From: Escherichia coli
GTDB lineage: Bacteria > Pseudomonadota > Gammaproteobacteria > Enterobacterales > Enterobacteriaceae
DNA length: 64,000 nt
Direction: 5' to 3' (one strand)
Assembly: GCF_041248615.1 (NCBI RefSeq)
Contig: NZ_CP158426.1
Shown here: positions 11,501 through 27,824 of the stretch, in pieces
How the letters are laid out: each line of letters begins with the position of its first letter
Position numbering within the stretch: position 1 is the stretch's first letter
Notes under the pieces: model-generated
What the model was told of the DNA's origin: nothing
The model's database searches: none
What the model saw: only the letters and a program-made list of their open reading frames with translations
Translations under genes and position numbers: made by a program

Positions 11501-11656
11501 GGCACAGGTTTCACCGAAGACGCTAACAGTTTTACCTTTTACAGGTGAGTAAAACTGTTGCTCGGGAATACCAAAGATTGAGCGTTGTTGTTGGTATTCA
11601 TCAAATATGCGCGTCAAAAGTTCCTCAAACGGAATGGGACGCATAATATCCCCCAT
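8558..11656 (-). CDS. ygfK: Large Fe-S flavoprotein oxidoreductase (glutamate synthase small subunit / dihydropyrimidine dehydrogenase-like)
   Basis: 1032-aa ORF; Rossmann motif VAVIGAGPAGLAAGYFLARAGH; ferredoxin-type Cys clusters CLECNYVCSKCVDVCP and CNECGNCAQFCP. Confidence 0.9.
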   Translation of the reverse strand: MGDIMRPIPFEELLTRIFDEYQQQRSIFGIPEQQFYSPVKGKTVSVFGETCATPVGPAAGPHTQLAQNIVTSWLTGGRFIELKTVQILDRLELEKPCIDAEDECFNTEWSTEFTLLKAWDEYLKAWFALHLLEAMFQPSDSGKSFIFNMSVGYNLEGIKQPPMQQFIDNMMDASDHPKFAQYRDTLNKLLQDDAFLARHGLQEKRESLQALPARIPTSMVHGVTLSTMHGCPPHEIEAICRYMLEEKGLNTFVKLNPTLLGYARVREILDVCGFGYIGLKEESFDHDLKLTQALEMLERLMALAKEKSLGFGVKLTNTLGTINNKGALPGEEMYMSGRALFPLSINVAAVLSRAFDGKLPISYSGGASQLTIRDIFDTGIRPITMATDLLKPGGYLRLSACMRELEGSDAWGLDHVDVERLNRLAADALTMEYTQKHWKPEERIEVAEDLPLTDCYVAPCVTACAIKQDIPEYIRLLGEHRYADALELIYQRNALPAITGHICDHQCQYNCTRLDYDSALNIRELKKVALEKGWDEYKQRWHKPAGSGSRHPVAVIGAGPAGLAAGYFLARAGHPVTLFEREANAGGVVKNIIPQFRIPAELIQHDIDFVAAHGVKFEYGCSPDLTIEQLKNQGFHYVLIATGTDKNSGVKLAGDNQNVWKSLPFLREYNKGTALKLGKHVVVVGAGNTAMDCARAALRVPGVEKATIVYRRSLQEMPAWREEYEEALHDGVEFRFLNNPERFDADGTLTLRVMSLGEPDEKGRRRPVETNETVTLLVDSLITAIGEQQDTEALNAMGVPLDKNGWPDVDHNGETRLTDVFMIGDVQRGPSSIVAAVGTARRATDAILSRENIRSHQNDKYWNNVNPAEIYQRKGDISITLVNSDDRDAFVAQEAARCLECNYVCSKCVDVCPNRANVSIAVPGFQNRFQTLHLDAYCNECGNCAQFCPWNGKPYKDKITVFSLAQDFDNSSNPGFLVEDCRVRVRLNNQSWVLNIDSKGQFNNVPPELNDMCRIISHVHQHHHYLLGRVEV

Positions 11657-11977
11657 AACCCTCTCCTTAGCTTATACAGATATCATTGAGTGACCGGTGT
11701 TGAGAAATCCGGTGGTTTAGGGGGATAGAGCAACAATCGCACCACTCTTGCCAGGTTTGGCGGGAAATATAAAAAAATGTGAGGCGGCTCGAAACTTAAG
11801 GGCTTTTTGTGAATGAACTCACAGGTGCTAAATGAGAATTAAAATCACTCCTGAAAATTATTATTGCCAGCCCATTTATCAATTTTTCTCTTTTCTCAAA
11901 ATCAGTGATTCCTTATCATTATGATAATGAGTGCCGGAAGGATTAAATATTTGAACGCAATCGTTTAACTACGTTTT

Positions 11978-12556
11978 CTAAATTTCAGTATACCTTTCCT
12001 TCGCTGTAATAAAGTCGTCCGGAGTATCAATATCTAAAATTATTTCTGCATTTTCTATTTCGACGGAATAATGATCTCCCATAAGGAGTGCCTGACGCAT
12101 ATTGGTGACATTGGGTCGTTGGATTGCCTGCATCAGGCATGGTTTTGACACTAAAATCGGATGGCCGGGGATGCCATTATGGAGTGGCAGTATTGCGCCA
12201 TCATTTCGTAACGACCAGATTTTTCTAAAAATATCGATGGTGAGGGTTGGCATGTCACCGTGGGTGAGAAAACAATGTTCTGTTTGCACTGCGGGTACTG
12301 CGGCCTTGACGGATGTTAGTAAACCCTGCGCATAATCTGGGTTGTGAATAATAGTGATATTGCTCTGGTTCGCATAACGTTCGTGCAGTTCATTACCACG
12401 ATAGCCGGTGACTAAAATAATTCGGCTACAAAACTGCAACGCATTTTTGATACTTGTATCAAGAATTGTTCCCTGTTCCCAGGGTAACATCATTTTCCAT
12501 TGCCCCATTCTTGATGATAATCCGGCAGCGGTAATTATACAGTCGATGGCTGACAT
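11978..12556 (-). CDS. mocA: Molybdenum cofactor cytidylyltransferase
   Basis: 192-aa ORF starting MSAIDCIITAAGLSSRMG (MobA-like nucleotidyltransferase N-terminus). Confidence 0.85.
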   Translation of the reverse strand: MSAIDCIITAAGLSSRMGQWKMMLPWEQGTILDTSIKNALQFCSRIILVTGYRGNELHERYANQSNITIIHNPDYAQGLLTSVKAAVPAVQTEHCFLTHGDMPTLTIDIFRKIWSLRNDGAILPLHNGIPGHPILVSKPCLMQAIQRPNVTNMRQALLMGDHYSVEIENAEIILDIDTPDDFITAKERYTEI

Positions 12557-19009: not shown

Positions 19010-20206
19010 TTAAGGTGCTACAGCGTGTTTGCCTTCCCAGACAACTTCGCGGTAGTGCTTCACGTCGGTGTCGCCTTCAGTGCTGATAACCAGCACCACG
19101 GCATCTTTGTTCAGCGCCAGTTTTTCCATCAGGCTTTGACGTTGCGGGTGATAATGAACCGCTGCGAGAACGCCCAAACCGACAGCGCCGGATTCACCGG
19201 AGATGATGCGCGGGTCGTTGCCGTACGGATTACCCAGCACGCGCATACCTAATGCGGCAACGCTGTCCTGGCAGGAGATGAATTGGGTGGCGCAGTTACG
19301 TAGGATTTCCCAGCCCAGCGGGTTAGGTTCGCCACAGGCCAGGCCTGCCATGATGGTGGCCATATCACCGCCAACGTTGACGATGTCGCCTTTGACGCCG
19401 GAGCGATAAATACAGTCAGCTTTGTCAGGTTCAACAATAATGCTGTGCAGATTTTGCGGGCTATAGACGTCGACCAGATAACCCAGCACACCACCGGCCA
19501 TTGCTCCGACACCGGCTTGCAGCAGAACGTGCGTCGGGGTTACGCCCATTTCACGCATTTGCTCGACGGCTTCATCTGCCAGGGTTGCGTAGCCTTGCAT
19601 GATCCAGGTTGGGATTTTGGTGTAACCTTCCCATGCCGTGTCCTGTACCACTTCCCAGCCGTGCTGCTGCGCGTGTTGCATGGTCAGGCGAACGGTATCG
19701 TCATAGTTCATATCCGTGACGATGCACTCGGCACCGAGGTTCAGAATGGCGTCAACGCGTTCCTGAGCAGAACCTTTCGGCATGTAAATCACCGCATTCT
19801 GTCCGAGTTGCTGTGCTGCCCACGCCACACCGCGCCCGTGGTTGCCGTCGGTGGTGGTCGCGAAAGTCATTTTTTCGCCGATGGCATTTTTCAGGTGCTC
19901 AAATGACAGCGTTTCGATATCAAGATGATATTTTTCACACAATAATTGAGCGATGGCGTACGCACCGCCAAGCATTTTGAAGGCGTTCAGACCGAATCGT
20001 TTTGATTCGTCTTTGACGAGAATTTTCTTCACACCAAAAAGGTTTGCGAGATCGTCCAGCGCACAAAGCGGTGTTGGGCGATAACCAGCTATTTTCTGGT
20101 GGAACTGGCGCGCCAGTTTGGCCTGGCTTTGCGAAAAGAGCGGTGATGTTTCGCCGTTGAAAAATTTGTTATCGGCGATATCAATCTTCAATGAGAAAAC
20201 GGACAT
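19010..20206 (-). CDS. ygeX: Diaminopropionate ammonia-lyase (PLP-dependent)
   Basis: 398-aa ORF, fold-type II PLP enzyme-like. Confidence 0.85.
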   Translation of the reverse strand: MSVFSLKIDIADNKFFNGETSPLFSQSQAKLARQFHQKIAGYRPTPLCALDDLANLFGVKKILVKDESKRFGLNAFKMLGGAYAIAQLLCEKYHLDIETLSFEHLKNAIGEKMTFATTTDGNHGRGVAWAAQQLGQNAVIYMPKGSAQERVDAILNLGAECIVTDMNYDDTVRLTMQHAQQHGWEVVQDTAWEGYTKIPTWIMQGYATLADEAVEQMREMGVTPTHVLLQAGVGAMAGGVLGYLVDVYSPQNLHSIIVEPDKADCIYRSGVKGDIVNVGGDMATIMAGLACGEPNPLGWEILRNCATQFISCQDSVAALGMRVLGNPYGNDPRIISGESGAVGLGVLAAVHYHPQRQSLMEKLALNKDAVVLVISTEGDTDVKHYREVVWEGKHAVAP

Positions 20207-21454: not shown

Positions 21455-21544
21455 AAAGTCCCGGTAGTGGAATGACAGGCAAAGTGGTTTATTTCACTGT
21501 GACTTGCCAAAGTGATTGGTGTTTTCACAGCTATACCTGGGACT

Positions 21545-21560
21545 AACAATAAGTGTGCCA
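21545..21560 (-). promoter_or_regulatory. Candidate sigma54 (-24/-12) promoter for the ygeW operon
   Basis: Minus strand reads TGGCAC-actta-TTGTT, about 90 bp upstream of the ygeW start. The -24 element is perfect; the -12 element is TTGT instead of TTGC. ygeV next door encodes a sigma54 activator. Confidence 0.35.
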
Positions 21561-21929
21561 GAATTATCCGCGCGGCTGAAAAAGACTAATTTGACGGATA
21601 ATGTGTGGGGTTGATCACAAATTGATGCCAGCTTCTGGTTGTTTGTAAAATACGAAAACGTTTGGCTTTTTTTATCACGTTATTTATTTGCTGCTAAGTA
21701 TCAGAAATAAGATAAAGGGGCAGGCTATCTCTCTTCAGTTTGATAAACTCACCGCCGTAATTCTCATATTGATATAGAAATGTGATATCTCTTCCATAAT
21801 TTCATTAGAAAATGATAAAAATCTTATGTTTTTATCAAAGCCAATTTCGCCTGAGTTAATATCATCATGATCTGTGAACCATCAACGTCTTCAATGATCG
21901 ACTTTTAAGTAAGTCTGGAAGGTAAAGCT

Positions 21930-23708
21930 ATGGAGCTTGCTACTACGCAGTCAGTATTGATGCAAATTCAACCGACAATTCAGCGTTTTGCCAGAATGCT
22001 TGCCAGCGTTTTGCAGCTTGAGGTTGAGATCGTTGATGAAAACTTGTGTCGCGTTGCCGGAACGGGCGCGTATGGGAAGTTTCATGGTCGCCAGTTGAGC
22101 GGCAACTCACGCCTGCTCCGCCACGTCCTGGAAACGAAAACTGAAAAAGTTGTGACACAGTCTCGCTTCGATCCCCTTTGCGAAGGTTGCGATAGTAAAG
22201 AAAATTGCCGCGAAAAAGCATTTCTGGGTACGCCTGTCATTTTACAGGGTCGTTGTGTTGGGGTGATAAGTTTGATTGCCGTTACCCACGAGCAACAAGA
22301 GCATATCAGTGATAATTTACGCGAATTTTCTGATTATGTTCGCCATATATCCACCATTTTTGTTTCGAAACTTCTGGAGGAACAGGGGCCAGGAGATAAC
22401 ATCAGTAAAATATTTGCGACCATGATCGATAATATGGATCAGGGCGTATTAGTTGTAGATGATGAAAATCGGGTTCAGTTTGTTAATCAGACTGCCTTAA
22501 AAACACTTGGTGTTGTGCAAAATAATATTATTGGGAAACCTATCCGTTTCAGACCATTAACATTTGAGAGTAATTTTACCCATGGACATATGCAGCATAT
22601 TGTTTCATGGGACGATAAAAGTGAATTAATCATTGGTCAATTGCATAACATTCAGGGCCGACAATTATTTTTAATGGCGTTTCACCAATCGCATACCAGT
22701 TTTTCTGTAGCAAATGCACCTGATGAACCGCATATTGAACAATTGGTTGGCGAGTGCCGTGTTATGCGGCAATTAAAACGACTCATTAGCCGTATTGCAC
22801 CCAGCCCATCCAGCGTTATGGTGGTTGGTGAAAGCGGCACGGGTAAAGAAGTCGTCGCCCGTGCAATCCATAAGTTGAGCGGAAGACGGAATAAACCCTT
22901 TATTGCTATCAACTGTGCCGCGATTCCGGAGCAGCTTCTGGAGAGCGAACTGTTCGGTTATGTTAAAGGTGCATTTACTGGCGCTTCTGCCAACGGTAAA
23001 ACAGGGTTGATTCAGGCGGCGAATACGGGCACGCTGTTTCTCGATGAAATAGGTGATATGCCATTAATGTTGCAGGCTAAATTACTGCGCGCTATTGAGG
23101 CACGTGAAATTCTGCCGATTGGTGCCAGTAGCCCAATACAAGTCGACATTCGCATCATTTCTGCAACTAATCAGAATTTGGCCCAGTTCATTGCCGAAGG
23201 TAAATTCCGCGAAGATCTCTTCTACCGACTTAATGTTATCCCGATAACTCTGCCACCGCTGCGTGAACGTCAGGAAGATATTGAACTATTGGTGCATTAC
23301 TTTTTACATCTGCATACCCGTCGTCTGGGATCGGTTTATCCTGGCATTGCTCCCGATGTCGTCGAAATATTGCGTAAGCATCGTTGGCCCGGAAACCTGC
23401 GCGAGTTAAGCAATTTGATGGAATATCTGGTTAACGTGGTTCCTTCAGGTGAAGTTATCGACAGCACGCTATTGCCGCCAAATCTGCTGAATAATGGCAC
23501 AACGGAGCAAAGTGATGTAACAGAGGTCAGTGAGGCGCACCTGTCACTCGATGATGCGGGCGGCACGGCGCTGGAGGAGATGGAAAAGCAAATGATCCGC
23601 GAGGCGCTTTCACGTCATAACAGCAAGAAGCAAGTTGCTGATGAACTGGGCATCGGCATTGCTACGCTCTATCGCAAGATTAAGAAATATGAGTTGTTAA
23701 ACACATAA
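21930..23708 (+). CDS. ygeV: Sigma54-dependent transcriptional activator (bacterial enhancer-binding protein)
   Basis: 592-aa ORF; AAA+ Walker A GESGTGKE, sigma54-contact GAFTGA motif, C-terminal HTH. Confidence 0.9.
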   Translation: MELATTQSVLMQIQPTIQRFARMLASVLQLEVEIVDENLCRVAGTGAYGKFHGRQLSGNSRLLRHVLETKTEKVVTQSRFDPLCEGCDSKENCREKAFLGTPVILQGRCVGVISLIAVTHEQQEHISDNLREFSDYVRHISTIFVSKLLEEQGPGDNISKIFATMIDNMDQGVLVVDDENRVQFVNQTALKTLGVVQNNIIGKPIRFRPLTFESNFTHGHMQHIVSWDDKSELIIGQLHNIQGRQLFLMAFHQSHTSFSVANAPDEPHIEQLVGECRVMRQLKRLISRIAPSPSSVMVVGESGTGKEVVARAIHKLSGRRNKPFIAINCAAIPEQLLESELFGYVKGAFTGASANGKTGLIQAANTGTLFLDEIGDMPLMLQAKLLRAIEAREILPIGASSPIQVDIRIISATNQNLAQFIAEGKFREDLFYRLNVIPITLPPLRERQEDIELLVHYFLHLHTRRLGSVYPGIAPDVVEILRKHRWPGNLRELSNLMEYLVNVVPSGEVIDSTLLPPNLLNNGTTEQSDVTEVSEAHLSLDDAGGTALEEMEKQMIREALSRHNSKKQVADELGIGIATLYRKIKKYELLNT

Positions 23709-27371: not shown

Positions 27372-27824
27372 GCATGATTCACCCGTAGCGGTTGCTTCCC
27401 GCGCTTCCATAGAAATCCCCTCGATTTGAACATTTGGTTCTTATGGCAAAGATTTAGTCTAAGCAGGCAAGATTTACGCCAGAAACGACGATAAGCGTTA
27501 GGGGAGGTAGGAAGTGTGATGACGTTAAAAAAACACAGATATGATACGAAACAGGACTCTGAATAGGGGCAGTGATACGTATCAATATGAGTGGCGATAA
27601 AATCAATGTGATAAATTGGGATTATTACGCATCAGGATGGGAAATAGGGTAAAAAGTCAGGAAGTTCGATACCTCTACAGCGAATATTTTGCTGATGATA
27701 CTTCCCTTTGCCAAATGAAATTAACCTCTTTCTCTATTACCACGTTTTTCCAGAAGCAAGAGATTGGGTATCAAGAGGCTGGCTGCTATGATAAGGCGTC
27801 TTGTTTTTTAAGCGAGGAAAGATT

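Follow-up and report, generated by a model that had tools for sequence, protein, structure and literature searches.

The window, by which we mean the whole 64-kb stretch of DNA analysed, consists of K-12-like E. coli DNA in reverse orientation. The spacer of interest lies between the stop codon of mocA (11978-11980, minus strand) and the start codon of ygfK (11656, minus strand), and it is identical to that of E. coli K-12. The features of the spacer and its surroundings are as follows.

8558-11656, minus strand: ygfK, first gene of the presumably controlled operon ygfK-ssnA-ygfM-xdhD
11729-11745, minus strand: sigma-54 promoter of ygfK, GTGGTGCGATTGTTGCT, ChIP-seq site OS31 (PMC4591121), also located here
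11778-11799, minus strand: blocks TTAAGTTTCGA and CCTCACA, conserved in the footprint of 30 Enterobacterales
11808-11823: exact CRP consensus TGTGA-N6-TCACA, TGTGAGTTCATTCACA, between the putative enhancer and the promoter
11829-11847, minus strand: block TGATTTTAATTCTCATTTA, conserved in the footprint of 30 Enterobacterales, containing a TCTCA half-site and giving the highest Fur-like score of the spacer
11894-11898, minus strand: half-site TGAGA (site II), 20 nt beyond the right arm of site I, inside the block TTTTGAGAAA (11892-11901)
11913-11927, read on the plus strand: 15-bp palindrome TTATCATTATGATAA, TTATCAT-T-ATGATAA, with 7-bp arms and a 1-bp centre
11914-11926: core TATCA-N3-TGATA (site I), the proposed site of a YgeV dimer, recognised by its cross-species conservation
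11978-12556, minus strand: mocA
21930-23708, plus strand: ygeV (isrR), sigma-54 activator by its domain make-up and the proposed binding protein

The preliminary description had placed the palindrome at 11913-11927 in the mocA-ygfK spacer, and both its sequence and its position were correct. On the gene strand it reads TTATCAT-A-ATGATAA, and it is overlapped by a further perfect palindrome at 11916-11930, TCATTAT-G-ATAATGA, which is offset by 3 bp. The window contains 15 palindromes with 7-bp arms and a centre of 0-1 bp, compared with 9.3 ± 2.9 in Markov simulations. Of simulated 321-nt spacers with the same composition (62 % A+T), 6.6 % had one or more of them. Judged in E. coli alone, the palindrome is a weak signal (P about 0.07 for the spacer), and the original caveat that it is faint and prone to arise from base composition holds at this level.

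For the comparative analysis we gathered 80 orthologous ygfK loci and compared 81 upstream regions, anchored on the sigma-54 promoter. The loci came from Escherichia, Citrobacter, Klebsiella, Trabulsiella, Edwardsiella, Serratia, Morganella, Aeromonas, Photobacterium and beta-proteobacterial assemblies. All ten bases of the core TATCA-N3-TGATA were exact in 67 of the 81 upstream regions, from Escherichia to Aeromonas and the beta-proteobacteria, while shuffles of the same regions gave an expectation of 0.05 loci. In these sequence comparisons the core of the palindrome is far beyond what chance would produce. The 67 loci represent 60 distinct 29-mers with ten invariant arm bases, a W-W-N centre and approximately random flanks, except for a favoured T before the left arm. 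Such a free centre and random flanks around fixed arms are the signature of a site for a dimeric protein. The footprint of 30 Enterobacterales agreed, with the core columns at least 90 % conserved, and the dyad symmetry stands out against diverged flanks, as expected of an enhancer. Only loci L002-L010, which form the Escherichia/Citrobacter group, have TAA as a fixed middle triplet, and on the alignments the 7-1-7 palindrome is the local form that a conserved site with a TAA centre takes in this group. Fourteen of the 81 loci lack the exact core and most of these show a version with one or two mismatches, for example TCTCA-TAT-TGATA in Kluyvera/Cedecea; the site of Buttiauxella sp. A111 is degenerate. 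The core is retained whether the upstream gene is mocA, the divergent yqeB or xdhC.

Regarding the promoter, sigma-54 ChIP-seq peaks have been reported at ygfK, ygeW, xdhA and ygfT (PMC4591121). The ygfK promoter, with its GG at 11743-11742 and GC at 11731-11730, is conserved in nearly all 81 loci and puts the probable transcription start near 11718. A second sigma-54-like match, TGGCAAGAGTGGTGC (11739-11753), overlaps it and is kept in Escherichia-like loci only, and for this reason we used the published promoter. No sigma-70-type promoter was predicted on the gene strand in 11600-12050. The palindrome is centred (11920) 177 bp before the -24 GG, within the 80-200 bp upstream at which enhancers typically lie, and about 200 bp from the putative transcription start. 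The latter distance is near the upper limit of what is common for enhancers. Among the 67 loci with an exact core, 65 have its first base 161-204 nt upstream of the -24 element (median 182), and the two outliers, both beta-proteobacterial, have it 86 and 146 nt before. The distances fall into classes of 161/162, 174, 181-183, 186, 194/195 and 204 nt, most of them about one or two helical turns apart. The classes at 162, 174, 182, 194 and 204 nt suggest helical phasing of the site with the promoter, which shared descent could also explain. A half-site TGA(T/G)A follows the first right arm by 19-22 nt, that is about two helical turns downstream, in 61 of the 63 distinct sequences; in E. coli this is the TGAGA of site II, and the block around it, TTTTGAGAAA, is likewise conserved among the 30 Enterobacterales.

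Between the putative enhancer and the promoter, the predicted CRP site is conserved in Enterobacterales and is the sole exact match to the consensus in the 64-kb window. CRP could bind there, which makes this site a candidate element for DNA bending or catabolite control. In the same interval, comparison by eye with the IHF consensus WATCAANNNNTTR gave no convincing conserved match. The PurR consensus ACGCAAACGTTTGCGT had one match with three mismatches in the window, which is the chance level. A PurR-like box near mocA has four mismatches.

Copies of TATCA-N3-TGATA with at most one mismatch were sought in the window and in the K-12 sequence next to it. The copies associated with the sigma-54 promoters of the cluster, and the promoters themselves, are listed here.

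11914, gene-strand sequence: ygfK copy TATCA-TAA-TGATA, 0 mismatches, -182 from the -24 element
21762-21774, minus strand: ygeW copy TATCA-ATA-TGAGA, 1 mismatch, -214 from the -24 element
21860-21872, minus strand: second ygeW copy GATCA-TGA-TGATA, close to the ygeV start, 1 mismatch, -312, uncertain as a site
27601-27613, minus strand: xdhA copy TATCA-CAT-TGATT, 1 mismatch, -132 from the -24 element
L001:4905, gene-strand sequence: ygfT copy TCTCA-TAT-TGATA, 1 mismatch, about -180
21545-21561, minus strand: ygeW sigma-54 promoter (PMC4591121)
27466-27482, minus strand: xdhA sigma-54 promoter (PMC4591121)
About L001:5085, outside the window: ygfT sigma-54 promoter (PMC4591121)

The window holds eight copies with at most one mismatch, compared with 1.7 expected, and all four sigma-54 promoters of the cluster (ygfK, ygeW, xdhA and ygfT) are preceded by one. 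In E. coli the copies lie 132-214 nt before the -24 elements, with one more at 312 nt. This last copy (21860-21872) is not conserved in Klebsiella, and its status as a site is uncertain. Another copy, exact, lies within dpaL/ygeX (19918-19930) and is probably a chance occurrence, since it is not conserved in Klebsiella either. For comparison, 98 kb of unrelated K-12 DNA contained seven one-mismatch copies and no exact one. The Poisson probability of the five copies in the 1,648 nt of spacer is 2e-7, rising to 3e-5 if A+T content is allowed a threefold effect. The pentamer TATCA was modestly enriched in the four spacers, with 20 occurrences compared with 7.9 expected (P = 2e-4 before correction for 512 tests).

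Copies were found at the corresponding promoters of other genera as well. Klebsiella has exact copies before ygfK and in the ygeV-ygeW spacer (L082:4479), and its ygfT-uacT spacer contains two one-mismatch copies. In Aeromonas, with a G+C content of 61 %, copies precede ygeW, xdhA and ygfK, the one at ygfK being exact; in the ygeW spacer the identical 15-mer, TTATCATAATGATAA (L094:6318), stands 237 nt before the promoter, and in the xdhA spacer 21 nt separate two one-mismatch copies. Morganella and a Rhodocyclaceae contig have one exact copy each in 23 kb, located before ygfK. Buttiauxella sp. A111, with its degenerate ygfK copy, has an exact copy in the xdh/ygfT spacer and a one-mismatch copy in the ygeW/ygeV spacer. 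The copies at the ygeW, xdhA and ygfT promoters suggest that the motif is a marker of the YgeV regulon, which serves the anaerobic breakdown of urate and purines.

The candidate binding protein is YgeV (IsrR), whose gene is the sole transcription factor gene in the E. coli cluster. The protein consists of a PAS domain, an AAA+ Sigma54_activat domain (PF00158) and a Fis-type HTH_8 domain (PF02954), so that a sigma-54 interaction domain and a DNA-binding helix-turn-helix, as expected of the cognate activator, are encoded in the cluster itself. It falls below every NCBIfam equivalog cut-off and accordingly forms a family of its own. The homologue search with E. coli YgeV returned near-identical E. 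coli proteins only and no outgroup contexts; the outgroup contexts came from exact-match look-ups with proteins of other genera, namely ArcC, YgfK, YgeX and a permease. Orthologues encoded within the cluster are 72 % identical in Klebsiella, 61 % in the beta-proteobacterial Rhodocyclaceae contig and 53 % in Buttiauxella, and the C-terminal helix ELGIG(I/V)ATLYRKI(K/N)KY is nearly unchanged in all three. No other regulator gene is common to the clusters of E. coli, Klebsiella, Buttiauxella and Rhodocyclaceae. Moreover, the beta-proteobacterial loci share with E. coli only the sigma-54 promoter and the palindrome with its downstream half-site, which argues that the palindrome, and not one of the enteric blocks, is the activator site.

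Published data are consistent with this assignment. The ygfK gene belongs to the 'YgeV iModulon' and ygfT expression is lower in a ygeV mutant (PMC10602906). Both ygfK and ygfT are induced by urate, and anaerobic use of urate requires ygeV (10.1101/2022.07.24.501321). A massively parallel reporter study from 2026 obtained no consistent footprints at the YgeV-iModulon promoters, a result that its authors call inconclusive. In the literature searched we found no published YgeV/IsrR operator, and the motif string had no match there either. The iModulon and the sigma-54 ChIP-seq sites cover the same four promoters, xdhA, ygeW, ygfK and ygfT, and have the same presumed regulator; they differ from the present element in describing co-expression and sigma-54 occupancy and no activator-binding sequence.

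The arrangement resembles the upstream activating sequences of NtrC (glnAp2), NifA, NorR, ZraR, AtoC, FhlA and PspF, where a dyad site likewise lies about 100-200 bp upstream of a -24/-12 promoter. Further shared traits of enhancer-binding-protein sites are recurrence at each promoter of the regulon, a cluster that also encodes an AAA+ activator with a Fis-type helix-turn-helix, a putative bendable element in between and probably a weaker second site about two helical turns away. The present element differs in its short, close arms (5+3+5) and in an intervening element that is CRP-like and not IHF. The NifA site, for comparison, is TGT-N10-ACA. The arm centres of TATCA-N3-TGATA are 8 bp apart, a tighter spacing than in NtrC-type sites, and to our knowledge the motif matches none of the operators of the seven activators named above.

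Taken together, we consider it probable (roughly 0.7) that the palindrome is the main YgeV-binding site, site I, of the sigma-54 enhancer of ygfK, with both the binding and the activation deduced from sequence and from the published expression data. A YgeV/IsrR dimer would bind TATCA-N3-TGATA (11914-11926) through its C-terminal Fis-type helix-turn-helix, and the TGAGA half-site two turns downstream (11894-11898) would aid the assembly of further subunits into an active AAA+ ring. The intervening DNA would loop, with the conserved CRP site centred near -97 probably supplying the bend, so that the ring could touch the closed complex of RNA polymerase and sigma-54 at the -24/-12 element (11729-11745). 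ATP hydrolysis would then open the promoter for transcription of ygfK-ssnA-ygfM-xdhD. The copies of the site would serve the ygeW, xdhA and ygfT promoters in the same way. Somewhat less firmly, we favour the wider proposal that TATCA-N3-TGATA together with TGA(T/G)A two turns downstream is a so far undescribed YgeV/IsrR operator, which lineages as far apart as Enterobacterales, Aeromonas and beta-proteobacteria have kept as the cis-code of their anaerobic urate/purine regulon, and that CRP and not IHF bends the DNA at ygfK.

An operator of another protein would also explain a conserved dyad. The palindrome might be bound by a second purine or urate regulator, an anti-activator or an architectural protein, with YgeV acting on another block of the spacer. 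The blocks TTTTGAGAAA, TGATTTTAATTCTCATTTA and TTAAnTTTnGA..CCTCACA are equally conserved in the spacer and would offer YgeV such a place; however, the beta-proteobacteria lack the enteric blocks and yet encode in their cluster a YgeV orthologue with the near-identical helix. The Aeromonas and Morganella loci examined have the site and no ygeV within about 10 kb of it, which would suit a different protein, but none of the other regulator genes is shared by the four clusters compared above and the recurrence of the site is specific to sigma-54 promoters. The 8-bp arm spacing and the TATCA half-site also resemble those of TetR-type operators. The tet operator is TCTATCA-N-TGATAGA, with the same half-sites in the same inward-facing arrangement. 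It differs in its centre, which is 1 bp as opposed to 3 bp here, and in the present site the outer bases are unconserved and the clusters have no TetR-family gene in common, so the resemblance is probably coincidental. Overall we regard the binding of another protein at the palindrome as rather unlikely.

The preliminary description had read the palindrome as a possible repressor operator of Fur type, resembling arrays of GATAAT hexamers and controlling the Fe-S and molybdoenzyme operon. On this reading, Fe2+-Fur would bind the A+T-rich palindrome and repress the operon or block its activation. The likeness to the Fur box (GATAATGATAATCATTATC; 7-1-7 or 9-1-9 models) is genuine as far as the E. 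coli sequence goes: it is an A+T-rich GATA/TATC palindrome with a perfect TGATAAT half-site on each strand, in either of two registers it agrees with the 19-bp Fur box in 13 of 19 positions, and its two overlapping dyads are 3 bp apart, the spacing reported for clusters of Fur sites (PMC2189734). The arms differ in order, being TTATCA..TGATAA here and TGATAAT.ATTATCA in Fur, and the conserved C and G of TATCA/TGATA, together with the free 3-bp centre, are off the hexamer register. We built a symmetrised 19-bp Fur matrix from ten K-12 promoters only (entC-fepB, entS-fepD, fes-fepA, fhuA, fecI, fecA, tonB, exbB, cirA and fiu), which makes the scores approximate. The ten known promoters scored 9.3-17.5 bits in leave-one-out runs, whereas the palindrome reached 8.2 bits, below all ten and at the background of the window, where 30 positions scored at least as much. 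The Fur-like flanks and centre are specific to Escherichia; the orthologous sites score 4.7 bits in the median, and no more than 8 of the 67 reach 9.3. Moreover, the site does not overlap a sigma-70 promoter as a Fur repressor site would be expected to, but lies far upstream of the sigma-54 -24 GG. Neither PMC2189734 nor PMC4676285 names ygfK, ygeW or xdhA in its main text. Fur-like scores of 9-11 bits do occur elsewhere in the ygfK spacer and in the ygeV-ygeW spacer. Nevertheless, a Fur operator at the palindrome appears very improbable. Of the earlier proposal, the part that survived is the idea of a regulatory site controlling ygfK-ssnA-ygfM-xdhD, and the part that failed is its assignment to Fur.

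The best Fur-like scores in the ygfK spacer are at 11834 (11.4 bits, the third best in the window), 11853 and 11828, and the ygeV-ygeW spacer has Fur-like positions at 21808 and 21508, so that the two spacers supply three of the five best scores of the window. These scores away from the palindrome may reflect only shared GATA/TATC words, or there may be an iron input at those positions.

The least probable explanation, to which we give next to no weight, is that the palindrome arose by chance in A+T-rich DNA, or forms an RNA hairpin or terminator after mocA, and has no role as a DNA site: its lack of significance in E. coli alone and the location about 50 nt beyond the mocA stop codon would fit it, but the comparative data already contradict it through the 67 of 81 loci with the core (0.05 expected) and its retention next to upstream genes other than mocA, and in the palindrome region we found no Rfam match, no predicted terminator and a fold no better than that of shuffles (z = -1.3) with the palindrome arms unpaired in the best fold.

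The element bound by YgeV, as we propose it, would be a sigma-54 enhancer site with a previously undescribed sequence, belonging to promoters and a co-expression module that are already published. The candidate motif would supply the cis-element that is missing from the studies of the YgeV iModulon and of sigma-54. It also illustrates that a palindrome which looks weak in a single genome can prove to be a firmly conserved element. The xdh/yge/ygf cluster serves the anaerobic degradation of urate and purines by gut bacteria, and recent work ties it to host urate and gout; YgeV has in addition been renamed IsrR, after its part in the indole signalling and virulence of EHEC and Citrobacter rodentium. 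With a candidate operator at hand, direct YgeV targets become testable, including the LEE virulence genes, and it becomes possible to study how these promoters integrate urate with catabolite control through CRP, and possibly with signals from purines or iron. The candidate operator would also help in rewiring the cluster in engineered probiotic strains.

The 64-kb window holds a single exact match to the CRP consensus TGTGA-N6-TCACA. It sits between the palindrome of the mocA-ygfK spacer and the sigma-54 promoter of ygfK, and Enterobacterales conserve it. A copy with one mismatch was found about 50 bp upstream of the sigma-54 promoter of ygeW. Together, the two matches suggest catabolite control or CRP-assisted looping at the sigma-54 promoters.

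Sequence features, in window coordinates
11739-11753, sigma-54-like match TGGCAAGAGTGGTGC
11808-11823, exact CRP consensus
11828, Fur-matrix peak, 9.3 bits (11828-11871 region)
11834, Fur-matrix peak, 11.4 bits (same region)
11853, Fur-matrix peak, 10.3 bits (same region)
11916-11930, perfect palindrome TCATTAT-G-ATAATGA
11952-11969, PurR/LacI-type half box GTTAAACGATTGCGTTCA, directly past the mocA stop codon
12625-12639, perfect palindrome GGGATAA-T-TTATCCC, in the short divergent mocA-yqeC spacer
19918-19930, exact core copy, TATCA-TCT-TGATA on the gene strand, within the dpaL/ygeX coding sequence
21508, Fur-matrix peak, 11.0 bits (ygeV-ygeW spacer, 21508-21826)
21604-21619, CRP consensus copy with one mismatch
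21652-21667, PurR/LacI-type box AGCCAAACGTTTTCGT, ygeV-ygeW spacer
21808, Fur-matrix peak, 11.2 bits (same spacer)
21930-23708, ygeV

The second sigma-54-like match overlaps the published ygfK promoter, lying 9 nt upstream of it, and is kept in Escherichia-like loci only. The second perfect palindrome, which overlaps the reported one with a shift of 3 bp, depends on flanks specific to Escherichia and shows no wider conservation.

Regarding further copies of the palindrome core (TATCA-N3-TGATA), the one within dpaL/ygeX is probably due to chance, as the Klebsiella ygeX has no matching copy. In Aeromonas, the ygeW promoter region (L094:6318-6332) carries the 15-mer TTATCATAATGATAA, identical to the E. 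coli ygfK site, in a genome with 61% G+C. No ygeV gene was found within the approximately 10 kb examined on either side of the Aeromonas or Morganella loci.

In 18 of the 67 loci with an exact core upstream of ygfK, the half box past mocA stands at a fixed spacing from the palindrome, 40-44 nt on its upstream side. Both PurR/LacI-type boxes match the PurR consensus weakly, with 3-4 mismatches, and the number of such matches is at chance level.

When the window was scanned with the Fur matrix, the top scores fell elsewhere than on the palindrome, and three of the five listed peaks rank among the window's top five. They may reflect common GATA/TATC words, or genuine iron input elsewhere in both spacers.

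For YgeV, the proposed binder of the core, no Pfam domain was matched in residues 1 to ~160. This N-terminal stretch, for which there are 850 representative relatives, carries four cysteines (C84, C87, C93 and C109) without change in E. coli, Klebsiella and a beta-proteobacterium (alignment A1). It may be a module that senses metal or redox state.
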